Shown here: positions 2,839-46,814 of the stretch, piece by piece
Numbering within the stretch: position 1 is the first letter of the stretch
How the letters are laid out: every line of letters starts with the position of its first letter
Assembly: GCA_963731035.1 (NCBI GenBank)
Contig: CAVSUY010000022.1
Span: forward strand, 4,887-68,886
Reading direction: 5' to 3'
Length of the DNA stretch: 64,000 bases
Origin: an uncultured Gammaproteobacteria bacterium
Lineage (GTDB): Bacteria > Pseudomonadota > Gammaproteobacteria > Arenicellales > JAANXG01
The notes under the pieces: model-generated
Databases searched by the model: none
Told to the model about the DNA's origin: nothing
What the model saw: only the letters and a program-made list of their open reading frames with translations
Program-made: the position numbers and the translations under genes

Positions 2839-4131
2839 ATGACCAAACAAAATCTGAAATTCCTGGACCAGCTGTTTCCCGAGTCTGGCGGAGAGGCGTT
2901 TATCAATGATTGGTGGCTCAAGAGATATACTCTCCAGCACGGTGAAGTGTCGCGCTTGCCATCTTGTTTGCAAGCTCCGGACGGAGCAGTTGCCGGTATA
3001 CATTGCCTTGAAAACTGGCGCAAAGGCGACCTTTTTGATGTCGCCGTGGTTGACGACATCGACTATACCCAATACACGGTTCGCGACTTGCCTCCGATGG
3101 CGTTATATCGAGTTGGCGCACCTGTAATGCTAAGTAACCCTCATTATCGCAACAATGAACTTGCCGATTGGGTGACCGGAGTCAGCAGTGAACTCGGTAT
3201 CGCCAACGAATTTGTGACAGTTAATGCCTGGTTCGCGCGAAAGTCCTACGGACTAGGCATGCACTACGACCCAGGTGAAGTCATCCTGATTCAACTGGTT
3301 GGCAACAAACGAATGCAAATTTGTACTAATCAATTCACGACGATGCCGGATACACAATATGAGCTCTGCAAGCCCTGCGAGCAGAGCGAGTTGCCGCTCT
3401 TTGCCAATGGGTTTCCAGAGGGTGAACTGGAAGGCACGGAGGAAATAGAGCTGTACCCCGGGTCCGTACTGGCCATGCCGCGCGGCACTTGGCATAACTC
3501 TCTGGCGATGGATTCAGAATCGATTGCCCTCGCTCTGTTCTTTCGCACGCCGACAGTCGTAAGCCTTGTAATTTCATACTTGCGGGAATTCTTACGGCAG
3601 GATCCACTCTGGCGTACGCCCTTGTTCGGCCTCAAACTGGAAGGTGACAACAGTAAAGATATCCAAGGAGCAATGGACACTATATCAACCAGTTTGCAAA
3701 CTCTTGACAAGTATATCCATGCCATTCACCCGGAGCAGGTGATCGCTCATGCAGAACCGGTGATCAGCCGTATTCATCGACTGAAACAGGCGCCCTATTC
3801 GCTTCAGCGGCTACCTGAAGCCAGTTTATCGATCAAGGCAACGAACAGCGACGCCTGTCAGATAGTCATCCACGCTCGACTGAACATGCAACAGACCAAA
3901 ACCAGCGAGATGGAACTGGATAGCAGCGTAGTCGGAGCACTGGAATGGATATCCGAACATCCAGCGCGATTTACAATAAAGGAAATTGCTTCAGCGTGCC
4001 CGGAATTACCTTTGGATCATATCGAAGGTTTGATTGACGTACTTCTGGAAACAAACTATTTGGCACTTCTGCCTTTCCCATCAATCCAACCCAATGACGG
4101 TTTCTCGAGTTCAGTTGGGGAGCAAAACTGA
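2839..4131 (+). CDS. JmjC/cupin-4-like putative 2OG-Fe(II) oxygenase
   Basis: 430-aa ORF with lower GC than background. HxD...H pattern (GMHYDPGEVILIQLVGNKR ... PRGTWHNS). Confidence 0.7.
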   Translation: MTKQNLKFLDQLFPESGGEAFINDWWLKRYTLQHGEVSRLPSCLQAPDGAVAGIHCLENWRKGDLFDVAVVDDIDYTQYTVRDLPPMALYRVGAPVMLSNPHYRNNELADWVTGVSSELGIANEFVTVNAWFARKSYGLGMHYDPGEVILIQLVGNKRMQICTNQFTTMPDTQYELCKPCEQSELPLFANGFPEGELEGTEEIELYPGSVLAMPRGTWHNSLAMDSESIALALFFRTPTVVSLVISYLREFLRQDPLWRTPLFGLKLEGDNSKDIQGAMDTISTSLQTLDKYIHAIHPEQVIAHAEPVISRIHRLKQAPYSLQRLPEASLSIKATNSDACQIVIHARLNMQQTKTSEMELDSSVVGALEWISEHPARFTIKEIASACPELPLDHIEGLIDVLLETNYLALLPFPSIQPNDGFSSSVGEQN

Positions 4132-4596
4132 ATCAATTCCCGATTGATCCCATTCCTCAAGACTTGCCATTTTCAATCCCAATAAGTCATACCGAACCAT
4201 GAGATAGCCGTCGGCTCTCCTTCTCAAGGCATAAGGGTGGCTGCAAATCAAGTCCTGCGCCATCAACCCTACGTGAGTTTTCTTCGTCGGATCGTTCTTA
4301 TATTGGAATCGATACAGCTGAATTCCATTTTCCGTAACGGATAAAGCCTCAATTTCAGTCTTCAGTCGGATGTCACTCGCGTTTCCGGCATTTCCGGCAT
4401 TCCCCGCGTTTCCAGCATTCCCGGCGTTTCCAGTCGAGTCAGAACTCTCGCTGGTTTGAGCATGGGCCGGGAGAATGACAGAGTCAATAACAGGTTTCTT
4501 CCACCCATTGGTTACTTGAGCAGTTGCCGTCATGACCAATGCACTACTTCCGGCCGTCCGCATCAAACGGCGGCGTTGCAATTGTTTTTTATTCAT
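4111..4596 (-). CDS. secreted protein: RR-containing signal, (GNA)6 linker, peptidase-S74 intramolecular-chaperone domain
   Basis: ATG at 4596 preceded by GGGGGA. Signal region QRRRLMRTAGSSALVMTATA...LPAHA. SDIRLKTEI...VGLMAQDL...MVRYDLL matches the S74 autocleaving chaperone motif. Confidence 0.8.
   Translation of the reverse strand: MNKKQLQRRRLMRTAGSSALVMTATAQVTNGWKKPVIDSVILPAHAQTSESSDSTGNAGNAGNAGNAGNAGNASDIRLKTEIEALSVTENGIQLYRFQYKNDPTKKTHVGLMAQDLICSHPYALRRRADGYLMVRYDLLGLKMASLEEWDQSGIDSVLLPN
4378..4431 (-). repeat. in-frame 9-bp tandem repeat x6 encoding (Gly-Asn-Ala)6
   Basis: Units cgcgtttcc/ggcatttcc/ggcattccc... read directly. Lies inside CDS 4111-4596. Confidence 0.9.
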
Positions 4597-26960: not shown

Positions 26961-27037
26961 GGTCGAAGCCGCTCCTGCAATCCCGGGCCAATCGCGGTGC
27001 TGATCCCTGGATCGTAGGAGCGGCTTTAGCCGCGATT
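26961..27037. repeat. REPIN of REP family 2
   Basis: ggtcgaagccgctcctgc ... gtaggagcggctttagccgcgatt. Confidence 0.85.
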
Positions 27038-27042
27038 CCTCC

Positions 27043-27267
27043 TTACTCACGCCAGAACGGTTTCCGATACTCCCGATACGCGTCGAGCCGGCTGATCCCA
27101 ATGTCTTTCAGGAGGTGCTCCGGCATCTCCAGCAGCTCCCGGCGCTCGACGGCGCGCTTGTGCCACTCGGACAGGCGGTCCATGGCACGAAGAACCCGTT
27201 CGAACAGGGAAACCCGCACGGTGGGCCGGTCGCACAGATCGTCAAAGCAGATATCAGTCGTGGTCAT
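27043..27267 (-). CDS. DUF1127 small protein
   Basis: C-terminal ELLEMPEHLLKDIGISR motif. Divergent from the LysR gene. Confidence 0.75.
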   Translation of the reverse strand: MTTTDICFDDLCDRPTVRVSLFERVLRAMDRLSEWHKRAVERRELLEMPEHLLKDIGISRLDAYREYRKPFWRE

Positions 27268-27336
27268 GGCTTATCTCCATTAGTATTTGCAATAGTGGCA
27301 TGGGCGGTATTGCCCTGCTGAGATGCGTTATATGCC

Positions 27337-28329
27337 TTGTATTCAGGCTTCACAAACCATATATTTTGCGTTGATTCATTAGTACAACTAATACTACCGC
27401 GACCACCTGTGAAACTGCCCCCGCTCGCTCCCCTTCGGGCCTTCGAGGCCGCCGCCCGCCACTTGAGCTTCACGCGGGCCGCCGAGGAACTGCACGTGAC
27501 CCAGGGCGCGATCAGCCAGCAAGTCAAGCAGCTCGAGGAATACCTCGGGTTCGCCCTGTTCCACCGCCGGCCCCGCAAACTGGCACTCACCGCGGAAGGC
27601 GGCGCCTTTCAGGAGGTGGTCGGCAACGCCCTGCGGCAGATCTCGGACAAGGCGGAATCATTGAAGTCGTCGCGGGACAGCGGACCCGTCACCGTGAGCG
27701 TGGTGCCGTCGTTCGCCGCCAAGTGGCTGATTCCCCGGCTCACGGCATTCCGGCAGGCCCATCCTGATATACCGGTACGAGTGGATGCCAACCATGACCG
27801 GGTCGACCTGCGCGACGGCGAGGTGGACCTGGCGGTGCGCTTCACCTGGCGGAAATTTCCCGACCTGCACTCGGTGGAGCTGTTCCGGGACCGGGTGTTC
27901 CCTGTCTGCAGCCCCGATCTGGTTCGCGAGGGTCGTGCACCCCGCACTTTGGAGGACCTGGCCAACGTGGTGCTGCTGCACGACAACGCGACGATGTGGG
28001 ATGAAAGCGCCTGCGATTGGGAGTACTGGGCCAGGGCCGTCGGCTTGAAAAACATCGATGTGCGCAGCGGACCCGGATTCACCCAGGGCGACATGGTGCT
28101 GCAGGCCGCCATGCTCGGGGACGGCGTGGCGCTGACCCGCAGCTCGCTGGCCGAGTTGGACCTCGCATCGGGGCGCCTGGTGAAACCCCTGGACATCAGC
28201 ATACCCTGCCCGTGGGCGCACTATGTCGTGTGCCTCGAAGAGTCGTTGGACCGCCCCAATATCAGGGCGTTCTATGACTGGCTGCTCGCCGAAGGATCGA
28301 GGGTCGCGCCTGTCTACGACAAGAGCTGA
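27337..28329 (+). CDS. LysR-family regulator (GcvA-like)
   Basis: LPPLAPLRAFEAAARHLSFTRAAEELHVTQGAISQQVKQLE. Start uncertain (possibly GTG near 27406). Confidence 0.85.
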   Translation: MYSGFTNHIFCVDSLVQLILPRPPVKLPPLAPLRAFEAAARHLSFTRAAEELHVTQGAISQQVKQLEEYLGFALFHRRPRKLALTAEGGAFQEVVGNALRQISDKAESLKSSRDSGPVTVSVVPSFAAKWLIPRLTAFRQAHPDIPVRVDANHDRVDLRDGEVDLAVRFTWRKFPDLHSVELFRDRVFPVCSPDLVREGRAPRTLEDLANVVLLHDNATMWDESACDWEYWARAVGLKNIDVRSGPGFTQGDMVLQAAMLGDGVALTRSSLAELDLASGRLVKPLDISIPCPWAHYVVCLEESLDRPNIRAFYDWLLAEGSRVAPVYDKS

Positions 28330-29356
28330 GCGGTCGAGCCGCCGCGTTGCCTATCCGCCTCCGGACCACCTCCAGGGAACGTTCAACGCCTGCCGCGAGA
28401 ATCCCGGAGACCGCCAGGATCAAGGGCAGCGAAGACAACACCAGCCCTGCCCCGTGCCGGCTGACTCCGATCCCCAGGGCGTGGTACAGATAGAAGACGG
28501 TCAGGCCCGCCAGAAAGTGCACCAGGTATATGGGGTAACTCAGATCACCGAGGCGCTTATCGAAGCGCCGGGTGAGCCATGAGGAAGGCTTTATCTCGGA
28601 CAGGCCCGCTACCGCCAGGCTGCACAGCACGTAGTTCGAGTAGAAGAATATTCCCGTTGACCGACCGGTCAGCCAGCCGCCCAGCCAGTTCGCAAGTATG
28701 ATCCCGACCAACACCAATGGAACCCAGGCTCCCGTCAAGTCGAGAGCTCGCCTGAAGTATTGCGGGATCGAAGCACCGAAATGAAAGATCAAGGCGCCGG
28801 TGGCGAAAGGGAGAGACGCGGAAGGGATTGCGAAGTACTGGTAAGGCCAGCCGAACTGAGCCGTCACAGCGACGACATGGTAGGCGACGCTTGCGGCAAA
28901 CCATACGATCACTGACTTTTTCGTCTTCGACAACCCGAGACCGATCAGGATATAGAAGCACAGCTCGACGGTCAGCGCCCAGGCCGGGGGTATCAAACGG
29001 GGAGCCGCCCTGGCCGGGAAGAAGATCAGGATATTCCGAGCGAGCTCGTCGACACTACCGGGGAGATAGAGAGTCGGGCGATAAGCGGTGGCAAACTGCT
29101 CTCCCACCAGCGCGATCAATAAGGCGGAAAGGCCGATGGACAGCCAATAGATCGGATAGATCCGGAGAAACCTGTTCAGTAGATAGCGAGCCGCGCCGGC
29201 CGGGGTGTGACCGTAGTCCCGGTGCATGATGCAACTCATGAGATAGCCGCTCAGCACGTAGAATCCGAACACGGCGTACGCGCCCATCCGTGGCGCCCCG
29301 CCAAGGTGCTGGGCGACCACCATCAACGCCAACGCGGTGCGGAACGTGCCGAACAT
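28262..29356 (-). CDS. acyltransferase family 3 (membrane O-acyltransferase)
   Basis: FRTALALMVVAQHLGG...FGFYVLSGYL with multiple TM segments. Last gene of the 32939-28262 operon. Confidence 0.85.
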   Translation of the reverse strand: MFGTFRTALALMVVAQHLGGAPRMGAYAVFGFYVLSGYLMSCIMHRDYGHTPAGAARYLLNRFLRIYPIYWLSIGLSALLIALVGEQFATAYRPTLYLPGSVDELARNILIFFPARAAPRLIPPAWALTVELCFYILIGLGLSKTKKSVIVWFAASVAYHVVAVTAQFGWPYQYFAIPSASLPFATGALIFHFGASIPQYFRRALDLTGAWVPLVLVGIILANWLGGWLTGRSTGIFFYSNYVLCSLAVAGLSEIKPSSWLTRRFDKRLGDLSYPIYLVHFLAGLTVFYLYHALGIGVSRHGAGLVLSSLPLILAVSGILAAGVERSLEVVRRRIGNAAARPLSSCRRQARPSILRRAASHRTP

Positions 29357-29380
29357 TACACGGCGGACCGTCGGGTCGCG

Positions 29381-30682
29381 CTAGCCGAGAATATCGAAGG
29401 TCCCTCCATCCGACAGGATGGTGCCTTCGCCGATTTCGTAGCGCAGCCCCGTATTCAGGATCCGTATATCCATGGTGCCGGCACAGCCCCTCCCGATCAC
29501 GAGCTTGTTGTGGCTGCCGCGAACCCAGATCCGCGATCCCTTGCGAAATACGACGTCGTCGCCGATCTCGACCCGGTTGTCGTGGCCCACGAGCTCGAGA
29601 CGGGCGCCCGACTCTATGCGGACATTCCGCCCGATGCTCACGACGTTCGCGAATCCCCTGGCCTTGACCTCCAGCGAGCCCGCCACTTTGCCGGATTGGC
29701 ATGTGACGCGATTGTCCTCGGAGCTCGAGTCCATGGTCACGCCCTCGACGCATGCAGCCGTAGCGGGATCTGCGGCATCCTCGCTCTCGCCCGCTCTGAG
29801 AATGCGCGGCCAGAGTCCGGAGCCGGGCGAGAATCTGTCCAGAAAACTCCGCGCATCTTCCTTGAGCGCCGGCACCACCTCGCGCAGAGCTTCGCCATCC
29901 CAGTCTACCGGTGTATCGGCAAACGGACGCCGCAGCCCGAGTTCCTTCAGAAGGGGATCAATGTGGTCGGGAGGTATCCTATCCAGCGCCTGGGCGATCT
30001 CCGGGAACTTCCCGCGTTTTCGGAAGTGCCGCATGCGCTGCGTATCGTAGAGCTTCTCCCTCCCTTCGTTCAGGCGGATGTCACATTCGGGTATTTCAAC
30101 ATCCGGATCCACGCCCAGAAAATCGAAACATCCCCGCAATACCATTCTTGGGTCCGCGGCGAGATGCTCGAGAAACACGACGTGTATCCGCCCCTCGTCC
30201 ATGTGGTCGAGATAGTTGCGGATCCGCTTCCAGTAGAAAGCATTCTCGAGAATCGACTCGTCTGTACGGGTGGCACAACCCAGAGAGTATGGCGCCAATA
30301 CGCCGTAGAGATGGCCGCTGTGATGAATCTCCTTGTACGCAGCCTCCACCCGGTCGATGGGATCGCGGGCAATGAAGATCAGCTTCATTCCTGGATAGTG
30401 ATGCAGCATCCGCTCCCGGGAGACGCGTTCGAATTCAAAATCCGTGTAGCAGGTGCTGCATTCCCCGAGCAACACGCCGGGCCGGGCATCCTTGAATCTT
30501 TCCGCGTATCCCGACCAATGGCTTAGGTAGTCCTCTTTGGGAAAGAAACAGAATTCCTTGAGACCCTCCCCCGTCGGCATGAAGAGCTGCGGATGACGCG
30601 AGAGCAGCTCGGTCAGGGTGGTAGTTCCACACTTGCTGAAACCCGGAACGATGAAATCGACGTGAATCGGAGGGCGCGTCAT
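29381..30682 (-). CDS. sulfotransferase (PAPS-dependent) fused to a C-terminal beta-helix/hexapeptide-like domain
   Basis: 5'-PSB motif VPGFSKCGTTTL and 3'-PB motif IARDPIDRVEAAY. C-terminus has repetitive V/I-G-x-x patterns. Confidence 0.85.
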   Translation of the reverse strand: MTRPPIHVDFIVPGFSKCGTTTLTELLSRHPQLFMPTGEGLKEFCFFPKEDYLSHWSGYAERFKDARPGVLLGECSTCYTDFEFERVSRERMLHHYPGMKLIFIARDPIDRVEAAYKEIHHSGHLYGVLAPYSLGCATRTDESILENAFYWKRIRNYLDHMDEGRIHVVFLEHLAADPRMVLRGCFDFLGVDPDVEIPECDIRLNEGREKLYDTQRMRHFRKRGKFPEIAQALDRIPPDHIDPLLKELGLRRPFADTPVDWDGEALREVVPALKEDARSFLDRFSPGSGLWPRILRAGESEDAADPATAACVEGVTMDSSSEDNRVTCQSGKVAGSLEVKARGFANVVSIGRNVRIESGARLELVGHDNRVEIGDDVVFRKGSRIWVRGSHNKLVIGRGCAGTMDIRILNTGLRYEIGEGTILSDGGTFDILG

Positions 30683-30691
30683 CTCACGAGC

Positions 30692-31363
30692 TCACTGGTC
30701 ACGGTATTCGAACCGGTATCGAAAGGTCTCGATGTCATCAGCGTACATCTCGGCGACCCGGTTGCGCGTCTCATCCGTATAGTAATCGCTGTAGTGCCTG
30801 GCGTTGCCGCGCCGGTTGCTGCGGGAGATCAGGCGCTCGTAGACGTCATCCATACCCAGGGAGTACAAGTACGGTCTCAAGGTAAGCTGGAGATCTTCCA
30901 GACGCAGAATTCTATCCACCATCAGTTCGCCGTCCCCGTCGCCCGCGTAGTGCCGTGTGTCGTAGGCGCCGTACTTTCGCCAGCGCACCGAGTCTTCACC
31001 GCCTCCCCCGGGGCCCTCGGTGCGCACCGTGCGCAGCCAGGCGGCGAAGCTCCCGGGGGAGTCATCTGCTTCGCCGCGCTCCTCCTCCTCGAGTACGTGT
31101 CGGTACAGCGAGACCAGCCTTTCCCAGGGATTTCGCGTGAGCATGAACCGGGTGTAGCTGTCGAAATCCAGACCTCGGCTGACGAACACCTCGCGCACCT
31201 CGATGGGACGCATGTGAGGATAGTACGGCAAGTCCTCAGTCCTCGTCAGATAATCCTTCGCGGGAAACTCGTCACTGTAGGGATTCAGGAACTGGCGTAC
31301 GCTGGAGGAACCGGTCTTGGGGTTGGCGAAGAAGATGAATCTGTAGCGGTGCGAAACGCGCAC
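30692..31363 (-). CDS. sulfotransferase family protein (type 2-like)
   Basis: FIFFANPKTGSSSV and MLTRNPWERLVSLY. Confidence 0.8.
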   Translation of the reverse strand: MRVSHRYRFIFFANPKTGSSSVRQFLNPYSDEFPAKDYLTRTEDLPYYPHMRPIEVREVFVSRGLDFDSYTRFMLTRNPWERLVSLYRHVLEEEERGEADDSPGSFAAWLRTVRTEGPGGGGEDSVRWRKYGAYDTRHYAGDGDGELMVDRILRLEDLQLTLRPYLYSLGMDDVYERLISRSNRRGNARHYSDYYTDETRNRVAEMYADDIETFRYRFEYRDQ

Positions 31364-31374
31364 GATGTTTCTCT

Positions 31375-32579
31375 CTAGGCCGCTTCGCGGGGCGGCCTCC
31401 CCGTGGTGGCCTCCAGAATCAAGGCGCTGCAGGTCTCACTCCCTTCGGCATCCCCCAGCGCCCGCAGCAGACACATCAGGTCGCCGAGCGCTACATCCCA
31501 TCGGAACCTCTCGCGAATGCGCGCCGAGGCTGCCGCCGCCGAGGACTTGTACCGGTCCCACTCGCTCCACATCTGGTGCAGCGCCGCCTCGAGCGCGCTC
31601 TCGTCGACCTTGTAGCCGCAATCCGACGGGTAGCCGAGCGGATCCCGCGATACCTCGCCTCGGTCCATCGGAAGATCCAGGGAGTTGTCATCGTCGAGGT
31701 ATTCCCCCAGCGCCGTATGCCGCGGAGCAATGACCGGGGTTGCGCAGGCGATTGACTGCAGTGGAATCAGGCCGAAACCCTCGGACTTGCTGGGGTGCAC
31801 GGTGCAGTGCGCGTTGCGGTAGCAGGCGGCGAGGCTTTCCACCTCGCGGTGCTCGGGCATGTCGAGATGGACCAGCTCTTCCGTCCGGTGCTCTTCGATG
31901 AGCTTCGGCAGATTGCCCGGCTCGTCCACTCGCAGTTGCAGCCGGACGCCGCGCGTGCCGCGAAACACATTCGCGAAGCATCGGATCAGCTCCGCGGCCC
32001 CCTTGCGGTCGGCGAAGCGGCTCGAAAACACGTTGAGAAACGTGAACGGACCGTCGGCCGGCGGCCCTTCCCCCGGCCTGAACGCCGGCTCCAGGCCGTG
32101 CCCCACAACCATGATGGGCGTCGTGACGCCGGAATCAATGAACGCGCGCCGGCAGAACTCGGACGGAACGATGACGAGGTCCATGGTCTGCAGGCGCTCC
32201 ACCCAGGCCGCCGGGATTGTCTCGCTCTCGCAGACGAAACCCGCAATCCGGACCCGGTGGCCGTCGAAGAAATCCGGGATATAACCCGGAAAACCATAGA
32301 AAAATCCCACGGGCGCATGACTATCCAGGCCAAGCCCGCTTCGAGCTCGCCGCGGAACAACGGCGGACCATAGTAGTTGCAGATTCCCGCGCCGGGGATG
32401 TGCTTCAGGACATGGGTGGCGATCTCGCCGGCGACACTCGCGATGGAACCGTATCCCTTCAGCGGTCCGTAGAATTGCAGGGGCAGACCGGAGCGCCTCG
32501 GCGCGGAGAAATCGAGAGGGGACGGAAGCTCAAACTTCGTTTCGACGGAAGCGACTACGGTTCCCATTGTGGTATTCAA
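31375..32579 (-). pseudogene. GT4 glycosyltransferase with one frameshift near 32335
   Basis: N-terminal frame reads MNTTMGT...GYGSIASVAGE...ELEAG. C-terminal frame reads LGLDSHAPVGFFYGFPGY...HPSKSEGFGLIPLQSIACATPVIAP. Span is 1205 nt (3n+2). Confidence 0.75.
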
Positions 32580-32606
32580 GCATTGACCGCACCGGCCACA
32601 CTACCC

Positions 32607-32939
32607 TCAGCAGACGTTCGTCGCGGAGAGACTGACGTTGGTGATGGTATGGCTCAGGGGGCCGGTGAGGTAGGTACTGTTGCAGTAGGGCGTGGAGCCG
32701 ACGTAGGTGAAGTGCAGGTCAACGCGCATGGCACCAGCGCTGGTCTGGGTACAGGTAACCGATACGTTGAATGCCCCGCAGGTCGGGTGCACGTATACGA
32801 ATCTCGTAGCATTGACTGAGGTGCCAACACCCGTGAGCACACCGTCCGCCGGCTTACTCACCGCGTTGAAAGTGATGATTCCATTGCTGGAACCGGGAGT
32901 GTGACAGTAGGTCACCGAGACGTTGACACTGATGGACAT
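32607..32939 (-). CDS. small Cys/Ser/Thr/Val-rich protein, first gene of the modification operon
   Basis: 110 aa from MSISVNVSVTYCHTPG. 6 Cys and 5 N-x-S/T sequons (NVS x3, NAT, NST). No signal peptide seen. Lies 27 nt upstream of the GT4 gene. Confidence 0.55.
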   Translation of the reverse strand: MSISVNVSVTYCHTPGSSNGIITFNAVSKPADGVLTGVGTSVNATRFVYVHPTCGAFNVSVTCTQTSAGAMRVDLHFTYVGSTPYCNSTYLTGPLSHTITNVSLSATNVC

Positions 32940-33299
32940 GTATGTCGCTCTTCTTTGTTCTATACTCGGTTCATCGGGGGCCGAATCACGTTGCACTTTT
33001 TCGCGAGCGACCAGGCGAGAATCCGGACGTCGGCGGAATTCGCAGGATCTGTCGCGAATTATATCCGGTAACGCTCCGACCGCAAATCAGGGATGGCGAT
33101 TGCTCCCAATCCTTGTCGGCGCGCGGGAGCAAAGCGCTATTCGACGGATGTGGACCACCAGTCAACTCTGATGGGCCGCTGGGCTCGGTTCGCCGGAAGC
33201 GGCCGGGGGGCCGGCATTCCAGTTGCGGGCGATCCTCGTCTCTGCTGTCTGAACGGCACTTCACTAGCTGATAACTGGCTTCTGCTAGCAGCAGGCACA

Positions 33300-36250
33300 G
33301 ACTGATGCCATCGCGGTATAGATCACGACTGTGGGGTCGCTCATCGCGTACAAGGGCTGATACTCCAGCCTGAAGAAAAGCTCTCTGGTGAGCGAAAGCC
33401 GGTATGTGCCCAGATACGGCTGTACGATCGCGAGCTGATCCACAGCATCCTTTCCGTGGACTTGGCGATGGGACTAGCACGTCTAGGTTGCAGGAGGCGA
33501 TGAGAACCGCTAAGGCGCACACGGCACCACTAGGCTCAATGGATGTGCTCTGGGAAAAGGCATTGCATCTTGTCCCAAGACAACCAATGAAGCGTAGACA
33601 GAACTACTGCAGCTGTACTCGGAGGGGTGATCCTCCGCAATACTGTCTTTGCTCGCCAGTACGAACTAGATGTCGACTAGATCGCTAGCAGGACTACCGT
33701 GAAAAGCGCGTCACTGCGAAAGCTGTTTATGACGGTTCTCGCAGCTAGGAGCTGAACCACTGTCGCGAGAATCAGAACTGGGACTAGGAAACGCTGGCAA
33801 AGCAGGACGACTACGGGAAACAGAAGGTAGAACTGCATCTCCAGTGACAGCGACTAGTGCCGAACAGGATGTTGCGGTACTCACTGTCGCTATACAACAG
33901 CTCAAAGGTATAGTTGGCGAAGTTGAGCAGGCGCTGGCACCGACGATCAGGTTGCTCTTGACTGTTCTCAACGCTCCGGTTTCATTGAACTGCGCCTAGC
34001 ACGAGACCTGCGATACCGTCTACGCTGCGCATGATGCGCTAGATGCGGCGGATCTAGAAGGCTGTGGCGTGTGGTAGAACTGTCTCTTGCTCGATGCGGT
34101 TTGAAGCTGCGAGAGCAAGTGCGTGCGATCTCGAAACTCGAGTGACTAAGAAAAGAGTGACGCTACTGGCGCTTGAACTAGTCGCTGAAAAACTACAGAG
34201 ACTCGGTCTTCTAGTGGAACTGTTTGAGCTTCAGTTGATAGATTATACTAGTACTATCGCGACGGTTAGGAGCACTTCGATGTCGTCAATCTGGGAAGTT
34301 GCGCTGCTTTTTTCAGAGGCGTACATGTCGGTTAGAGCGGCATGGATTGATCTCTTTGGTTGTGAACTATCTAAGCGAGTTCTCTGTATTATATATTCGA
34401 ACTGTGGAGCTAGCTGAGTTACTAGGGGTCGTTTATGTCGGATTATTGATCTTTTGATGAACGACAACGTTTCTTTGTCTATTTGCTTCGGAAAGCTCTG
34501 TGGTAGCGATGGTCTCGGCTCGGGCAGTCGAGACTGTGTGGTGTATTTATCTGAAAGCGCTGCGAGGACTGAGAAACACAGAGGTGGCATCGGATACAGA
34601 GTCGCGTAACGATGATGACTAGCGAGTGCTACGTCATCGCTTTCTCATCTCTCTCGGCTGGCGCGCTCGGTTAGCGCGCTGCTGCTGTGATTTTCACCGG
34701 CTACGACGTCTACGATGATTCGTACAAGACTGACACTTCGGGACGCTGATCGGATAGCTGAACGACTATTCGTTGATCGTGTGTGCTCTGAGCTTACAGC
34801 GCTTACTGTCTGATATTAACTGACTAAAGCGATAGCGAGATCGCTGCAATTATATCTCTCTGTTAGAGCGCTACGACACTGTTAGAAAGAACTATGACTG
34901 CTATAGAGAAATCGAGCTTGCTTCAGTGCTGTATACGTGGACAGCTACTATCTTTGCTTCTCTCGGTAAAGCTCGTAGAGCTATTTCTCAGCGCTGGGGT
35001 TTCGAATCTCACTGAAATCGGCGACAGTGTTTGCTGCGCGTGCTGGACTTCTGCTGATCGGGTGAGTGCTTTAGCTTTTGAGAAGTTTTGTACTGCTAGA
35101 AGATTGAAGAACTTAGAAGAATGCTGACAGAGCTATGATTCTGCTGCTAAAGCGAATTGATATGCATCAATTTTTCTATGTATTACTAAATATAAGAGCA
35201 ATTAAGTTAGATTAGATTGCTCTGCGACTTAGTCAGAGCTAAGAAACGATCTATTCTGAGAAACGATAGCAATTTCAATAAAGTGATATATGTGATAGAA
35301 ATCTTAGATCAGCTACATTTCTCTGCGATTTCGGAGTACTTTGCGAGCGACTCTATTGAACTACTGCAATTGCTGATAGAGCGCGTAGCGCTGATTCTGT
35401 CGATTAGTACTATGCTAGAGATCTACGCTGCGCTGAGAACAAACTCGCTATCTTAGTGTCTGTTGACTTGTGAGCTCTACTCGCATCTTCTGAGTAACAG
35501 CTGAATGCTGAGTATTAATTCGAAGTGCTGAGCGCTTTCTGCTTAACGCACCGCTTCTACGACGACGCTACTCTGTTCTTCTAGACCGACGCTCTCGATC
35601 TCATACTGCTGCGCATGTCTGAGAGCTAGCGAAAATAAAACGTTTATATGCTAAGTGCTATTAATAGCTGTAGATCTGAACTCAACTTCTTATTGCAACT
35701 AGCTAGCGAACACTACTTTCTTCTTCCTAGACTACTCTGCGATGTGTCTGCTCAAACAATCGCGGATTTCTTGATCCTAGCGTAGTGCTCATCGCGCTGA
35801 GCTGAGACGCTCATACAGAACTGATCTCTGCTGAAAATAAGTACAAATTAAACTCTTAGCGCTACACAGATCTACGCTCTTCGAATCTCCCACTCTCTAC
35901 TGAGACAGCTTGTGCGACTATAACTGAGAGAGCTTCGCAGAGTTTTCTAAAAATATTACAAAACTACGCTAACGACACGGACACCGATTACTCTCTGTGT
36001 CCGCTGCACGCGCTAACTGTTAGCGCGCTACTGAGAAACTCACACCGTAGCTACGCACTCTAGAGCTAGCTCTATCCGTTACTGCGCTATCTTGCTCATA
36101 GCTGCGACGCTGAGAAGACCGCTCTCTATTGCACTGAGCTGAGCTGACCCGAATACAGCTATACTTCGATCTCAAAGCTTCCTGCCGATATTGAACGCAC
36201 GATCGCTATTCGAACTGCCAAACTCACGGCCCGACTCAACAGTGAACCGA
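33300..36250. other. ORF-free, compositionally graded tract (GC minimum ~32% near 35.2 kb; CTAG-rich; GG/CC-poor)
   Basis: No ORF >117 aa in six frames, and all three stop codons occur in all frames. Dinucleotide and tetranucleotide hand counts are given in the findings. Confidence 0.8.
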
Positions 36251-36606
36251 CAGATCGCCTGAATCTCTCCGCTGTGCTACGCCCGCCGCCCGCACTCCGA
36301 GCAGCTCCGACGAGCTCGTGCCGCTGTTCGCACGGAATTCGACGATATCCCGCGAGGAATGAGCACCTGCCGCAGAACGACTGACGCGCGCTCGAGAGAC
36401 ACGAGAGCCATCCCCACTCCGCGTCGCGCACGGCGGTGCGCACGCATGCGTCGCACCCGCGAACGATCCCGCCCGCTCGCGCCCTGCGCAGAGAACACGA
36501 CCGGCCGAACCGGTACGGCCTGGTGGTGGAGAGAAACGACGCGGACAGCCGATCGCTACCACCGGTAAGGCGGAAGGGGAGCTGACACGGAGCTGAGCGC
36601 ACCTGC

Positions 36607-37228
36607 ATGAGATATCGCTTCCCGGAGGCGCGGCGCCCCCGAGCCCGACGACGAGAGCCGGCGACCACGGAGCTGGAGCTCCGGGCGACGACACCCACGA
36701 TCCGAATCCGCCGGACGGCCGCAGAACTGCGTCGACCCGACACTGCTACTGCCTGGCTCTCACACACCCGGACGCCACCTACTGCACCCGACCACACGAC
36801 ACCAACCTCGGTGTCGGCCACTCCCGCACCCCTTGCGACGGTGGCACGGCAGAAATGCCGCGTCGCGCTCACCAACAGCTCCATCCGGACGCCGCGATCG
36901 CCGCCCGCCCTGGCGAGCCACTACTGCGACAACGCGACCAGCGGCGAAGGCCAGTGCCGCCGCTGATGGAGTACATGTCCGCCGGCGCACCGGCAGTGGC
37001 TCCCGATCACACGGGAATGATGGACTACGTGAACCGGCACAACGCGCCATCGCGGAGGCCGACCGCGAGCCCTGCGGATGGCCCCAGGATGGCCGCGGCG
37101 CGCACCGCACCCCGCCGGCGCCCAACAAGGAGTCCCTGGTGCGCCAGCTCCGGAGAAGCTACGACGTCGCGGCCAACTCTCCCTCCTTGTACGCGGAGAT
37201 GGCCGGGCGAGCCCGGTCGACCTGCTGA
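36607..37228 (+). pseudogene. GT4 glycosyltransferase fossil (C-terminal half recognisable, several frame changes)
   Basis: ...RVALTNSSIRTPRSPPALASHYCDNATSGEGQCRR / LMEYMSAGAPAVAPDHTGMMDYV / PNKESLVRQLRRSYDVAANSPSLYAEMAGRAR lie in three frames. They align to VHLDMPEH..LAACYRNA..PSKSEGFGLIPLQSIACATPVIAPRHTALGEYL of the gene at 31375-32579. Confidence 0.55.
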
Positions 37229-37319
37229 AGCACTGCTCGCCGGCGGCTGTCTCCACAAGCTCCAGCAACCGACGACGCGCACGGCGAGCGGATGTCTCCA
37301 CCCCGTGAGGCGGAGGAAC

Positions 37320-37901
37320 ATGGTCGAAATTCGGACACGAACGCCAAGCCAAACGCGCCTACCTGGTTCTGGGAGCGGAGTCCAGCGGCACGCACATGGT
37401 GACCGAGCTGTTGATCAGCGCGGGCTGCATTGGCCATGCCGGTGATCACATCGATTGGCAGATCGACCAGCGGGAGCTGCCGAGGACGGATTTCGGCTCT
37501 GGGAGTCCGTCGTGCCCACCGCCAGCAGCCGTGGGATCCGAGCTGCCCCATGACCAGACTCCCATCGTCTGGCGCTAGAGCTCCCCCACGGTGGCGATCG
37601 GGTGGACATCTCCGGGTTGATACAGTTGCTCGAGGAGCGGGGCTATTCGGTCACGACTGTGGTGATCACCCGCTACCGCCACGCCACGATCCAGTCGCAG
37701 CTCAAATGGCGTCATGCCGCCGATGCCACGGCGGCCGCCGCCGCGATCGATCGTGCCACCAGGCATATACCCGCTCATCTCGACAGATGCGCCGCGGATT
37801 TCACCCGGGTGACATACGAGATTCTGGTGCGCGATCCCGGCGCTCGCGAGACCTTGCTGTCGTCGCTGCGCCTCGTGGTGCCTAGCGGTTGGCGCCTGTG
37901 A
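37320..37901 (+). pseudogene. P-loop (sulfotransferase/kinase-like) small protein with two compensating frameshifts (near 37350 and 37575)
   Basis: MVEIRTRTPSQ / KRAYLVLGAESSGTHMVTELLISAGC...TPIVWR / ELPHGGDRVDISGLIQLLEERGYSVTTVVITRYRHATIQSQ. Confidence 0.6.
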
Positions 37902-38068
37902 GAGAAGACAACACAAAATGGGACGCAACGGACGCGGGCGGGCCGGTGGAGGGTTTTCCGGCCGCCGAAGCGCAGATACCGCTCGACGGATTTCCCGAAT
38001 GGAGCTTCGCCTGCCAGCACGCCTTGAGGCGGAACTATCTCGAGTGCGCTCACTAGGGCTGTAAGCGC

Positions 38069-38816
38069 ATGAAGGAGTCCACGGTCATGCTGTGCGGGTT
38101 GGCGCGAGACGTTGAAAGATATCTTGACCCGGTCATTGCCCGCGTTGAGCGATTCGGCCGCTGCTTTGCGAACTACAGGGTGGCGGTATATGAGAACGAT
38201 TCACGCGATTCGACGGCCGCCCGGCTTCAGCGGTGGAGAGAGGAAAACGAACGCGTAGTGGTTCTCAATGAAACCCGGGGCGTCTCTGCGTGGCCAGTTG
38301 GCACTTCCCCTGAGCGCATGGGGCACATGGCGCAATGCAGGAATCGGTATGGAGCTCGCCGGCGATACCTGCCCGGCGGCCGACTTCGTCGTCGTGTTGG
38401 ACATGGACCTGCCGCAGGGATTCAGCTACGAGGGAATCGCCAACACGTTCGGCGATTCGGAGTGGGACATCGTCGGGTCCAACGGTATACTGTTCGCGCC
38501 GGCCGGGGGGATGCCGCTGGGCAGGCGCGACTCTTCGATATGGGCGTTCAGGACAGACGAGTATCCGGACGGGTCGGCATTGGAGATGGTGAACGCGCTC
38601 CGTTTCGAGCGAGGAGAGCCTCTGGTCCCGGTGCGCTCGTGCTTCGGCGGCCTGTGTGTTTACCGCGCGCCGGCTTTCTTCTGCGGCGAACGGTACGATG
38701 GCGGGGACTGTGAGCACGTCGTGTTCCATGAAGCTCTGAGGCGCCGCGGGTATGATCGCCAATTCCTGAATCCGAGCCAGATCGTACTTTACACGGGACC
38801 AGACAAAGCGGGATGA
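38069..38816 (+). pseudogene. GT-A-fold-like transferase, frameshifted near 38348
   Basis: MKESTVMLCGLARDVERYL...VAVYENDSRDST...AQCRNRY, then MELAGDTCPAADFVVVLDMDL...CFGGLCVYR. Span is 748 nt (3n+1). Family call is inference. Confidence 0.6.
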
Positions 38817-39571
38817 ATGCTCATCCACAACAGATTCATGAACTCAGCTCGCCGCGCTACGGCTCCCACTGCTGCGAACCTCGCTCGATTGTCACCCGCA
38901 GATCGAATGCCATACCGAGGTATTCAATCCGGACTTCACCGTGTTCGCCCCGTATGATCGCGCCACTCCCGCGGTAAAGATCTCGATAATCACATCTTCG
39001 GCACACGGCCGTCCGAAATCCAATCGGTGGGCTTCTTACTGCATAGAAGCGCGCCAACTTCGGCGCCTGGCAGGACCTGTGGCCCCGGCTGGAGAAGGAT
39101 GATGCCCTGCGCATCGTCAGCCTGCGGCGCGAGAACCTGCTGCGCCGTTACCTGTCTTATCTCACCATGAAAGAGCCGCGCGAGCGCAAGCTCCATCCAC
39201 GGACACTGGATCCCGTGGAGTTGGAGGCGGAGTTCGAGGCGCGCCACAGTGAAATCACATCGTTCGACGAACGCTTCGCGGGCCATCCGCTGCTGGTCGT
39301 GACCTACGAGCAGCTGTGCCACGACCACGCCAACACCCTCGAGGCTGTGCAGCACTTCCTGTCAGTGCCGGTGACGGACCTGGCTCCGCACACCAACCGC
39401 AATCCGCGCCTGGATCTCAGGTCGGCGATTTCGAACTACGACGCCCTCCGCGCCCACTTCGAGCACACGCCCTGGGCGGGATTCTTTGACGACAGACCGG
39501 AGCCCCCGGTTGACCAGATCAAGTTCGGTGGATACACGGGACGCATCACCATTGCTTCCTCTGGCGACTGA
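38813..39571 (+). pseudogene. sulfotransferase with at least 2 frame changes and an in-frame TAG
   Basis: MNAHPQQIHELSSPRYGS / LLRTSLDCHPQIECHTEVFNPDF / ...SVGFLLH / NFGAWQDLWPRLEKDDALRIVSLRRENLLRRYLS...LLVVTYEQL...FLSV. ATGA overlap with the previous gene. Confidence 0.6.
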
Positions 39572-39603
39572 GACCGGCCTCCGGGGACGGACGCCGGAGA
39601 ATC

Positions 39604-40068
39604 TTGGAGGCCGCGTCCCCGGGAATATCCCCTATGAATGATCCTGAGCCGGGGTCTCTTTATGTGCCGTATCTAACCGACAACTTCTGGGAAGAAACCG
39701 CACTCGACCGCTTCCGCTACGATACGTTCGTGGAAACAGGGAGTTACAGAGGGTTCGTGCTTGAGTTCATGAAAACCCGATTCAGGTTCATTGACAGCAT
39801 CGAGCTTTCGAATAGATGGTATGAGTTTTGCCGGGAAAAGTTCAGGAATGATGCGCATATGTATTTGCATCAGTTTGAGTACAACTGGACCGGTATCACA
39901 CTGGAGAGGGTACTGGGTCTGATGAAGCCGGGTTATGGGTGCTTGGAGAACGCACAATCCCGGTATACAGTGACACCTCGCGAGGACCAGTTGATCTTCT
40001 ATCCTCTTGGGGACCGGGCGTTCTTCGAGCGACGAGGAGCGGGGTGTAACGGCTGGGGAGGCTTCTAG
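39604..40068 (+). CDS. hypothetical protein with methyltransferase-like N-terminal motif, possibly degraded
   Basis: DTFVETGSYRGFVLEFM...IDSIELS resembles class I/FkbM-type MTases. Downstream motifs not found. Confidence 0.35.
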   Translation: MEAASPGISPMNDPEPGSLYVPYLTDNFWEETALDRFRYDTFVETGSYRGFVLEFMKTRFRFIDSIELSNRWYEFCREKFRNDAHMYLHQFEYNWTGITLERVLGLMKPGYGCLENAQSRYTVTPREDQLIFYPLGDRAFFERRGAGCNGWGGF

Positions 40069-40283
40069 GCGCCGATCGAGAAGGCCTGGCTGGTGGTGCC
40101 CCTGAGCCCGTGGGTGGCGATGACGGAGCTTCTCGCATGAGCCGGCAGCGTAACGGATTCGATGATGGGCCTCACCCAGCGCGTCGGTACCGTCGTACCC
40201 GCGAACAGCGAAGCGGCGAGCAGAGTCCGGCGAACGTGCTTGTGATCGAAAGATCCATCGCCCTTTTTAGACTTTTCTTTCAT
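40065..40283 (-). CDS. small secreted peptide precursor sharing the leader of the 4111-4596 protein
   Basis: 72 aa. HVRRTLLAASLFAGTTVPTRWVRPIIESVTLPAHA then a 22-aa tail. The motif W-x-[KR]-P-[VI]-I-[DE]-S-V-x-L-P-A-H-A is shared. Confidence 0.5.
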   Translation of the reverse strand: MKEKSKKGDGSFDHKHVRRTLLAASLFAGTTVPTRWVRPIIESVTLPAHARSSVIATHGLRGTTSQAFSIGA

Positions 40284-40413
40284 AACTGAAACCTTCTTCG
40301 GCAGGCCGAGACAACCCGATAAGCAAAGTATACAGCTTTTCGCCGGCAAGTCGTCGCGGCGGCCAATCTGCGGCCTGGGCCTTCGTTCGTTCATCCCGCC
40401 GGTCCGGCTGAGG

Positions 40414-40884
40414 TTGCACCGGCCGGCGGGATGGAACGGGGCTCAGCTCAACGAATACGCCCACTCGGCGCCGCTCGCGCGGCAGATCCCCAGCGCCCGG
40501 CTGGTGGAGCTGCCGGGTCCTGATCACTTGTTGTTCGCCGGTGACAACAGCGACGAGATCACCCGGGCCATCGTGGATTTTATCGAGGCTCCGGCGAAAC
40601 GCGAGAAGACCAATCGCGTGCTCGCGACCATTGTTCTGATCCAGTACGGAGACGGCGTGGGCGACCGTGTGTCCGACGCCGTGGCGGCATCTGTCAGTGA
40701 CGAGCTCCGGCGTTTTCGTGCCACCCACGTCGCGGCCCAGGACGGCGCCGGGATCGCGGCGACCTTCGACGGTCCCGCCAGGGCTCTCGAATGCGCGCGC
40801 TCATTGTCGCTGCTTCTCTCTGCGGCGGGCATCCATCACCGCATCGGGGTACACGCCGGCGAGGTTACCCGCGATCGTCTGTGA
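40414..40884 (+). pseudogene. fragment of an alpha/beta-hydrolase + class III nucleotidyl cyclase fusion
   Basis: ARLVELPGPDHLLFAGDNSDEITRAIVDFI is a hydrolase C-terminus. RVLATIVL...GIHHRIGVHAGEVTRD is a degenerate, truncated cyclase. Ends at a REP. Confidence 0.6.
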
Positions 40885-46154: not shown

Positions 46155-46814
46155 CTAGTCAGCCCTTTTCGGGCCAGGCTTCTGGCGCCGCAGGCGACGA
46201 CCCGTTAGAGATTCGAGGCGCCGAAGGAACGAATCGGAGCCCAACGGGCGGCCGGTACGTTCATGGAGCTTAAGCACTTCGGTATCTTGCGGGCTCGGAT
46301 TTTCCGTCAAGTATTCGGACCAATCGTCGACGCGATTTAGCATCGGGGCCACGCTTACCAATTCGTCGTCCCTGCCGTCCAAATGTGCCCGGGCACTGGA
46401 CCATTTCCAGCTTCCCGGACGAGTACACAGGCCGGCTCGAACCGGGTTCAGCTCAATGTAACGGACGGCGGCTATCAAGTGAGACTCATCCATCGGGAAC
46501 GAAGCAAAGCGGCCCTGCCACAGATACCCCCTCCATCCTTCACGAAAGTTGACATAGCGTGTGTATCTCCTGTGTGCTTCAGCCAGTGATCGATGCAGAC
46601 CGTCAATACTGCGGGGCAATAGCACGAGATGCACATGATTGGGCATCAGACAGTAGGCCCATACCGCAACATTGGCCTTCTTACAGTGGCGGCTGATCAA
46701 GAGCCTGTAGTGACGATAGTCCCTGTCGGAAAAAAAGACTCGTTGCCGGCGATTGCCGCGTTGCGTGATGTGGTGTGGGATATCAGGTACCACGACCCGT
46801 GCCATCCTGGCCAT
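46155..46814 (-). mobile_element. REP-associated tyrosine transposase (RAYT, IS200/Y1 family)
   Basis: IPHHITQRGNRRQRVF...YCLMPNHVHLVL...YIELNPVRAGL. Flanked by inverted REP units. Confidence 0.85.

Follow-up and report, generated by a model that had tools for sequence, protein, structure and literature searches.

A 64,000-nt stretch of contig CAVSUY010000022.1 (assembly GCA_963731035.1, an uncultured gammaproteobacterium of the Arenicellales), here called the window, holds a gene for a 110-aa protein that is followed on the minus strand by genes for a GT4 glycosyltransferase (GT), two sulfotransferases and an acyltransferase. Is this small protein a dedicated substrate that is glycosylated, sulfated or acylated by the products of its neighbours, as an earlier note made from the sequence alone had proposed, or does it stand beside an ordinary polysaccharide cluster? 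The five minus-strand genes lie where that note had placed them (28262–32939); the compact operon it described is, however, incomplete, a second acyltransferase-3 gene upstream and a divergent six-gene arm reaching to 40,283 having been missed. The full cassette comprises 12 genes in ~12 kb (28,262–40,283), with the five-gene operon as its right arm, and the complete cassette is intact in at least three assemblies. Encoded on the divergent arm are, in this order, a 559-aa protein (p559), a 439-aa GT4-like GT (GT_439), a 502-aa CAP59-like GT (CAP59_502), a 254-aa sulfotransferase (ST3), a 144-aa protein (p144) and the product of a 72-aa micro open reading frame (micro-ORF); the GT and sulfotransferases of the right arm are referred to as GT4_397, ST1 and ST2. 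As assembled, the window locus is a defective member of this undescribed and rare cassette, which in turn is built on a wider undescribed module of a leader micro-protein of the twin-arginine translocation (Tat) type, a small protein and a GT4. Judged by sequence, the conserved core of the cassette consists of the twin-arginine-type micro-protein, the small signal-less protein and the dedicated GT4. All coordinates are positions in the window unless a comparison locus is named; L-numbers denote such loci, e.g., the metagenome contigs L001–L003.

The small protein, its leader and their conserved neighbourhood

Two diverged orthologues of the 110-aa protein (80–82 % identity) keep exactly 110 codons, and the ratio of nonsynonymous to synonymous substitution rates (dN/dS) of the open reading frame (ORF) is 0.17–0.26, next to 0.19 for the neighbouring GT4 gene, with a GC content of 0.76 at third codon positions. 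On these sequence data the ORF is a real gene under purifying selection. Its family is very rare, with ~17 homologues among 5.8 billion proteins: exhaustive HMMER and profile searches yielded ~12 remote relatives (30–40 % identity, 98–128 aa) and a metagenome scan seeded with the GT4 added three further ones. A scan of GTDB representative genomes with the small protein returned nothing, and the protein has no Pfam match.

The composition noted earlier holds in most respects. An obvious signal peptide is lacking, as is any N-terminal hydrophobic stretch; Ser, Thr and Val together make up 41.8 % (about 40 % had been given), five Tyr residues are present, and the five N-x-S/T sequons (three NVS, NAT and NST) compare with 2.1 expected from composition (P ~0.03). 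The Cys residues number five rather than six. Neither Cys nor sequons can serve as the clue for which they had been taken, both being lineage-specific rather than family traits: C63 is the only Cys invariant across the 17 family members, and distant members carry zero to two sequons at positions that are not kept, only N6 and N87 being common to the close orthologues. The ideas of a Cys-rich and of an N-glycosylated protein were dropped for this reason. Cytoplasmic N-glycosylation of the HMW1C/NGT type was likewise rejected, since the acceptor sequons are not conserved and no match to a GT41-type N-glycosyltransferase was obtained in the scans of the cassette proteins.

What does characterize the family, as far as sequences and models tell, is a conserved beta core with a variable loop. 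The structure prediction and fold search that had been proposed as a check were carried out. AlphaFold2 (AF2) supplied with only three close orthologues gave an unusable model (pLDDT 43), and 11 diverse sequences were needed to obtain a confident all-beta model of seven strands (pLDDT 84, pTM 0.76), in which the loop of residues 81–95 is of low confidence. Foldseek found no match with E <0.2 in PDB or BFVD; matches to the fold of the DnaK substrate domain (TM ~0.4) were not significant and were not counted as evidence. Between family members the loop differs in length, is rich in Tyr, Gly, Ser and Asp (e.g., GYGYGYGY, SSYDQGSYDGES) and always contains at least one Tyr.

The co-occurrence search that had also been proposed bears the association out, the distant homologues of the small protein clustering with orthologous GT4 and sulfotransferase genes. 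Every small-protein locus with sufficient flanking sequence has a GT4_397 orthologue (36–42 % identity) as neighbour of the small-protein gene, and most such loci also carry orthologues of GT_439, CAP59_502 and ST1, ST2 or ST3 (36–52 % identity). The cassette enzymes thereby travel with distant small-protein homologues in ~10 lineages, at loci of 44–65 % GC. Orthologues were recorded for ST1 (36–45 % identity; L087, L089, L090, L091, L114), ST2 (44–49 %; L089, L090, L091, L093, L114), ST3 (39–48 %; L089, L090, L091, L114), GT_439 (36–46 %; L087, L089, L091, L094, L095, L114) and CAP59_502 (40–52 %; L089, L090, L091, L095, L114). One orthologous GT bears an Exostosin GT47 domain, and at other loci hexapeptide acetyltransferases or FkbM-type methyltransferases replace the acyltransferase-3 genes.

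No initiating phosphoglycosyltransferase, Wzx, Wzy, Wza, Wzz or ATP-binding cassette (ABC) exporter appears in the Pfam lists of L001–L003, L087, L089–L091, L093 and L095; our own scans were likewise free of polysaccharide assembly and export families, p559 and p144 staying unassigned. A cluster for a Wzx/Wzy- or ABC-dependent polysaccharide (exopolysaccharide (EPS), capsular polysaccharide or O-antigen) was rejected, as the required assembly and export genes were not found. Because the small ORF is conserved and the clusters lack EPS or lipopolysaccharide (LPS) machinery, the outcome that the earlier note had named as fatal to its idea did not occur. The proposal of a dedicated modified substrate thus stands with respect to the tie between a conserved small ORF and the enzymes in surroundings devoid of such machinery, and falls with respect to its Cys and sequon basis and to the missing GT41. 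No paper describing such a cluster was found in a literature search.

A cluster of another kind (L099–L104 and L111; e.g., L100, 6,683–13,727) holds a sister lineage of the GT4 clade. It also encodes a PqqD recognition domain, GT2 enzymes, a GT of the DXD type, a Stealth phosphotransferase and a Tat-signal protein of 103 aa that contains GSNMGxPL repeats. By its gene content this cluster resembles a locus for peptide-directed glycosylation or phosphoglycosylation.

The second small component is an ORF of 59–91 aa with a twin-arginine motif and a hydrophobic h-region, which lies immediately upstream of the small-protein gene in eight lineages and is often translationally coupled to it; counting the window cassette, where the micro-ORF is located elsewhere in the cassette, a micro-ORF with this leader accompanies the small protein in nine lineages. 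The leader of the window micro-ORF reads VRRTLLAASLFAG...W..PIIESVTLPAHA, and the micro-ORF is 45 % identical to one directly upstream of the small protein in L093. The Tat model TIGR01409 (cutoff 16.7 bits) is exceeded by the micro-ORFs of L090, L109 and L114, and those of L097 (16.2 bits) and L110 (14.8 bits) score just under the cutoff. A read-through fusion of micro-ORF and small protein was rejected: the three junctions examined use three different stops, and one of them overlaps out of frame.

Members of the leader family comprise at least 443 'hypothetical' proteins with the twin arginine, the h-region and the consensus W.KP[IV][IV]..V.LPAHAQT[ST], the remainder being either a longer domain or a tail that is short and variable; many carry RRxLLK. 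The trio of leader micro-ORF, small signal-less protein and GT4 of the same clade also recurs with small proteins of no detectable homology (L108, L110 and L177, the last selected solely for being a long contig). The same leader (QRRRLMRTAG...WKKPVIDSVILPAHAQTS) furthermore heads a 161-aa protein encoded in a low-GC patch of the window (4,111–4,596, minus strand), where it precedes a (GNA)n repeat and a Peptidase_S74 intramolecular-chaperone domain (E 6.6e-9). Its occurrence on a Peptidase_S74 protein suggests a general export signal rather than the leader of a ribosomally synthesized, post-translationally modified peptide (RiPP).

Several smaller observations concern the trio and its leader. 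In L177 (8,553–13,471), which shares a sample with L002, the leader micro-ORF, an 83-aa protein and the GT4 lie beside a gene for the eukaryote-like GT Glyco_transf_18, and a second GT of eukaryote-like type, Glyco_transf_34, is encoded ~9 kb upstream of the trio (1,088–1,849). The small proteins of the trio, otherwise unrelated, frequently have a Cys among their four C-terminal residues (NVC, GCTT, GCG and KCST; window 32,607–32,620, L108 796–1,056, L110 9,665–10,081 and L177 10,238–10,489), which the remote relatives of the 110-aa protein lack. Sampling of ~20 of the 443 leader-family matches (e.g., P0049, P0084, P0100 and P0120) showed a subgroup with a Cys-rich tail of ~60 aa (C.TDT.VGGPL.G...CQAACE.EA...LC...C.C.LDLP), which occurs in Arenicella and other marine gammaproteobacterial metagenome-assembled genomes (MAGs).

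Cassette enzymes, a proposed export route and its rivals

The enzyme classes assigned earlier (acyltransferase-3, two sulfotransferases, GT4) are upheld by Pfam matches. The intact GT4, present in L001–L003, L005 and L006, belongs to its family with 59.5 bits to PF20706 and 47.9 bits to PF00534 (cutoffs ~26), the PF20706 match being limited to the generic C-terminal half of the model, and the motif SEGFGLIPLQS of the E-x7-E region is conserved across all GT4 orthologues. The Pfam name GT4-conflict had suggested a defence against phages or a 'conflict' system, an idea that was rejected, as ten cassette proteins gave zero PADLOC hits. The weak relation of p559 is to the GT_439 family. Cassette sulfotransferases are of the kind dependent on 3'-phosphoadenosine-5'-phosphosulfate (PAPS): ST1 matches PF13469 (48 bits) and PF00685 (36 bits) and has the PAPS loop SKCGTTT and the motif RDPIDRVEA, ST2 matches PF03567 (47 bits) with the PAPS loop PKTGSSS and the 3'-phosphate motif RNPWERLVS, and ST3 matches PF13469 (40 bits). 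Among solved structures, ST1 is closest to 3rnl (1e-15) and to heparan sulfate 3-O-sulfotransferases (1e-9). The beta-helix-like tail that had been noted on this 433-aa enzyme is real, as it matches a separate Hexapep protein encoded at another locus (27 % identity, E 7e-8), with weak matches also to hexapeptide and gamma-carbonic-anhydrase chains. Single-sequence and profile searches of solved structures found no usable relative of ST2, ST3 or the CAP59-like GT; ST3 is marginally similar to NodH, and none of the cassette sulfotransferases significantly matches tyrosine sulfotransferase structures (E 0.9). The acyltransferase of the right arm covers positions 8–324 of the 326 in PF01757 (58.6 bits), and the paralogue encoded upstream of it reaches 96.7 bits in L002. 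The GTs and sulfotransferases have no signal peptides and carry GT-B starts or PAPS loops at their N-termini; by sequence these are cytoplasmic enzymes.

Taken together, gene content and conservation suggest that the small-protein pair is glycosylated and sulfated in the cytoplasm and then exported via Tat, a reading to which we assign a probability of roughly 40 %. The GT4 and the two further GTs would build a short glycan on the small-protein pair in the cytoplasm, and the three PAPS-dependent sulfotransferases would then sulfate this glycan. The decorated protein would leave the cell through the Tat system in its folded state, riding on the signal-bearing micro-protein; Tat is proposed because the product would by then be folded and bulky, and the ride on a partner because the small protein has no signal of its own. 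Acylation, at the membrane or past it, may be the task of the two membrane acyltransferases found in the Arenicellales version. The acceptor would be a protein, either the 110-aa protein or the signal-bearing micro-protein; the candidate acceptor site is the variable Tyr/Gly/Ser/Asp loop of the small protein. Tat hitchhiking and the site of acylation are similarly putative. The small protein fits the role of cargo or substrate better than that of an adaptor, because leader and GT4 are conserved and the tails and small proteins are variable. In its most specific form, a secreted-glycoprotein route would have the small protein glycosylated and multiply sulfated in the cytoplasm in a proteoglycan-like manner and exported folded through the leader micro-protein, with the trio constituting a module family of hundreds of members; as a whole we consider this version possible though rather unlikely.

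A number of observations weigh against glycosylation and sulfation of the pair with subsequent Tat export. TIGR01409 gives no hit for the window micro-ORF, nor for its L093 counterpart; the window micro-ORF is 7 kb away from the small-protein gene, at the far cassette end adjoining the divergent arm; and L089 has no adjacent leader micro-ORF. The GT4 clade is also found without the 110-aa small-protein family. ST1 is most like carbohydrate sulfotransferases, with ST2 and ST3 assignable neither to sugar nor to tyrosine substrates, and the usual substrates of acyltransferase-3 enzymes are glycans belonging to lipid-linked or secreted polysaccharides. We also know of no natural case of a cytoplasmically glycosylated protein exported by Tat.

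The product may instead be a free or lipid-linked, sulfated and acylated oligosaccharide or glycolipid formed on a non-protein acceptor, the small proteins being accessory (regulator, chaperone or anchor) or unrelated. Such a product would suit a set of three GTs and three sulfotransferases, the resemblance of ST1 to heparan sulfate 3-O-sulfotransferases and the marginal NodH likeness of ST3, as well as the known decoration of Nod factors, O-antigens and periplasmic glucans by acyltransferase-3 enzymes. It would leave unexplained, however, why a Tat-type micro-ORF and a small protein, even an unrelated one, are tied to the GT4 clade across lineages, and none of the loci holds a NodABC-like set, the hallmark of a lipid glycosyltransferase, undecaprenyl phosphate-based initiation or flippase and export genes; we regard a non-protein acceptor as unlikely, though a serious contender. 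Another assumption is that the polysaccharide cluster is an ordinary one whose small ORF is spurious or irrelevant, or that the locus is simply dead, for which the frameshifted GT4 and the five other broken cassette genes of the window could be invoked. The ORF keeps its 110 aa in three diverged lineages at a dN/dS of ~0.2, distant homologues share its gene context, the whole cassette is intact elsewhere and polysaccharide assembly and export genes are absent; this assumption is already contradicted by the conservation data and its probability is very small.

The other main rival, though an improbable one in our view, is a RiPP-like system in which the micro-protein itself is the substrate, its leader (W..P-I-I..V.LPAHA) the recognition element, the Thr/Ser of AHAQT[ST] the glycosylated residues and the 110-aa protein a peptide-binding adaptor. 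In its favour, conservation is strong in the leader and at the QT[ST] junction, with tails that vary like RiPP cores; a PqqD recognition domain and a repeat peptide with a Tat signal accompany the sister lineage of the GT4 clade, and the top fold matches of the 110-aa protein, weak and non-significant, point to DnaK's peptide-binding domain. One would nevertheless expect an adaptor that recognizes a conserved leader to be conserved as well, whereas the protein at this place is non-homologous between L108, L110, L177 and the window; the leader also heads the Peptidase_S74 protein, and a leader peptidase and an ABC exporter are not present. Two more specific candidates were rejected: a sulfated RiPP of the RaxX/RaxST type, as the 110-aa product is confidently folded, no gene for an ABC or peptidase-containing ABC transporter (PCAT) occurs in any locus and a tyrosine-sulfotransferase match is missing, and a glycocin of the SunS/GccA type, as the GTs are GT4-like and CAP59-like rather than GT2, the protein is all-beta and no exporter is found.

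Relation to known systems

Cytoplasmic glycosylation of the small-protein pair and its export by Tat would parallel the accessory-Sec serine-rich repeat adhesins (GtfA/GtfB, Asp2 O-acetylation, SecA2/SecY2), where a protein substrate is encoded beside a GT4-family enzyme. The parallel proposed here extends to cytoplasmic glycosylation, further GTs that extend the glycan, acylation and dedicated export of the pre-modified protein. At the sequence level the similarity of the cassette to the GtfA and SdgA models is weak and of the general GT4 kind (GtfA 16 bits, compared with a family cutoff of 575). Unlike accessory-Sec systems, the cassette is devoid of SecA2/SecY2, Asp genes and a serine-rich repeat substrate, possesses sulfotransferases and has its twin-arginine-type signal on a separate micro-protein. 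With RaxX/RaxST of Xanthomonas it shares a PAPS-dependent sulfotransferase encoded beside a small ribosomal product with Tyr. A peptidase-containing ABC transporter exports RaxX, a leader-core peptide, and cleaves it, and RaxST has no accompanying GTs; the cassette, in contrast, lacks such a transporter and contains GTs, and its sulfotransferases are without specific similarity to tyrosine sulfotransferases.

Clustering of GTs and sulfotransferases in a bacterium is also known from the xss genes for the sulfated exopolysaccharide synechan of Synechocystis (PMC8205485). The cassette resembles xss in this grouping and differs from it in that no Wzx/Wzy-type or initiating transferase genes occur in any locus studied here. 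xss reportedly relies on Wzx/Wzy-type polymerisation and export genes, and to our knowledge no small-protein pair has been reported for it. As in the Tat hitchhikers of E. coli (HybO/HybC of hydrogenase-2 and DmsA/DmsB of dimethyl sulfoxide reductase), a signal-less protein is encoded beside a twin-arginine partner, and export is proposed to follow folding or maturation in the cytoplasm. Known Tat carriers are full-size cofactor proteins, whereas the mature part of the putative carrier here would measure 13–45 residues, and no redox cofactor is involved. The combination of a protein, several GTs and several carbohydrate-type sulfotransferases finally recalls animal proteoglycan assembly (core protein, exostosin GT47 and heparan sulfate sulfotransferases); this likeness is an analogy only, compartment, GT set and scale being different and evidence for a polymer absent.

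Sulfated glycoconjugates are rare in bacteria, and we know of no sulfated glycan on a dedicated bacterial protein. If correct, the proposed route would add a new class of bacterial glycoprotein, supply a case from nature in which Tat exports cargo glycosylated in the cytoplasm, of interest to glyco-engineers, and assign a role to two 'hypothetical' small-protein families, one with hundreds of members. Given a cassette of only 12 kb and the existence of intact sequences, the idea lends itself to a direct test by heterologous expression.

Layout of the cassette and the damage tract in this copy

The features of the cassette are compiled in Table 1. The intergenic gaps of 11, 9 and 24 nt given earlier are correct; the first gap amounts to the stated 27 nt only from a TTG start of the GT4 gene and to 39 nt from the ATG (32567) used by the orthologues. 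The single frameshift in the GT4 is confirmed by comparison with intact 397-aa copies as the absence of one C at 32,334 within a run of three, which splits the gene into two overlapping ORFs (31375–32310 and 31986–32579). L001–L003 carry the same locus in near-perfect mutual agreement and with an intact 397-aa GT4.

Table 1. Genes and gene remnants of the cassette in the window
Feature	Position	Strand	Basis and remarks
Membrane protein of acyltransferase-3 type, 364 aa (347 aa in other copies)	28262..29356	-	Pfam Acyl_transf_3, E 7e-16; last gene of right arm
ST1 sulfotransferase, 433 aa, fused hexapeptide-like beta-helix tail	29381..30682	-	Pfam Sulfotransfer_3/_1, E 2e-12 and 8e-9
ST2 sulfotransferase, 223 aa	30692..31363	-	Pfam Sulfotransfer_2, E 4e-12
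GT4 glycosyltransferase (GT4_397), broken by 1-nt deletion at 32,334	31375..32567	-	Pfam GT4-conflict, Glycos_transf_1
110-aa signal-less all-beta protein, G46R relative to all other copies	32607..32939	-	Selection, family and AF2 model
Remnant of second acyltransferase-3 (AT3_396), 396 aa where intact, 13 in-frame stops	33162..34326	-	Acyl_transf_3 on L002 copy, E 2e-27
Remnant of 559-aa protein (p559), GT-B-like C-terminal half, 35 in-frame stops	34457..36101	+	Intact in L002
Remnant of second GT4-like glycosyltransferase (GT_439), 439 aa where intact	36092..37308	+	Pfam Glyco_trans_1_4 on L002 copy
Remnant of CAP59-like (GT69-like) glycosyltransferase (CAP59_502), 502 aa where intact	37320..38816	+	Pfam CAP59_mtransfer, E 9e-6, under curated cutoff
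Remnant of third sulfotransferase (ST3), 254 aa where intact, 3 in-frame stops	38813..39571	+	Sulfotransfer_3 on L002 copy, E 6.5e-10
144-aa protein (p144), no function assigned, intact	39634..40068	+	Called in L001 and L002; no family match
72-aa micro-ORF, twin-arginine-type leader, 22-aa tail, intact	40065..40283	-	Identical to L002 215-433

Six of the 12 cassette genes are broken in the window, the GT4 gene by its frameshift and those for AT3_396, p559, GT_439, CAP59_502 and ST3 by outright destruction, so that the cassette as assembled cannot work; in addition, the small protein has Arg at the near-invariant Gly46, unlike every other copy. Compared with L002, 837 differences were counted between 32,334 and 40,380, all but four isolated G-to-C changes located below 39,100 and the density highest at 33,200–37,200; from 28,400 to 32,333 the two sequences do not differ at all. 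Within this tract the GC content falls from 62 to 45 %. The classes of change start successively along the plus strand, beginning with C-to-T almost exclusively at a C that follows a C (49–56 % of CC sites, compared with 0–4 % of other C), followed by A-to-T and C-to-A, then by G-to-A at GG and G-to-T, and lastly by a deletion zone with G-to-C and T-to-C. Between 33,000 and 38,000, 174 deletions are set against only two insertions. CC dinucleotides have nearly disappeared at 34.0–35.5 kb and GG dinucleotides at 35.0–36.5 kb. The tract could reflect a real CC-specific cytosine deamination of the APOBEC3G type, with a strand switch as at resected breaks, or it could be an artefact of assembly, consensus or basecalling, to which the deletion-only pattern and the sequential onset of error classes would point. 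Depending on which holds, the tract is a caution about a publicly deposited long-contig MAG, or else it records the action of an APOBEC3G-like, CC-specific cytosine deaminase on a bacterial chromosome.

In the related gammaproteobacterial MAG L008 (14,221–17,247), the gene for the Lhr helicase directly adjoins genes for an aminotransferase and an alanine dehydrogenase; because Lhr abuts these genes there, the cassette together with the LysR and DUF1127 genes (~27,000–40,500) is viewed as an accessory insertion of ~14 kb. A plasmid search and an Rfam scan of the window gave no match, and a promoter and terminator scan yielded nothing exceeding shuffled sequences. Where the acyltransferase gene meets the convergent LysR gene (28,224–28,390), identity to L003 is only ~75–80 %, the adjacent cassette being identical; the window acyltransferase is 17 aa longer at its C-terminus than the 347-aa forms P0019 and P0020 and overlaps the 3' end of LysR. 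By sequence, this junction resembles a recombination boundary. A few kb past Lhr, a gene for an IS200-like Y1 transposase (46,155–46,814, minus strand) adjoins a gene for a phosphonate-binding protein.

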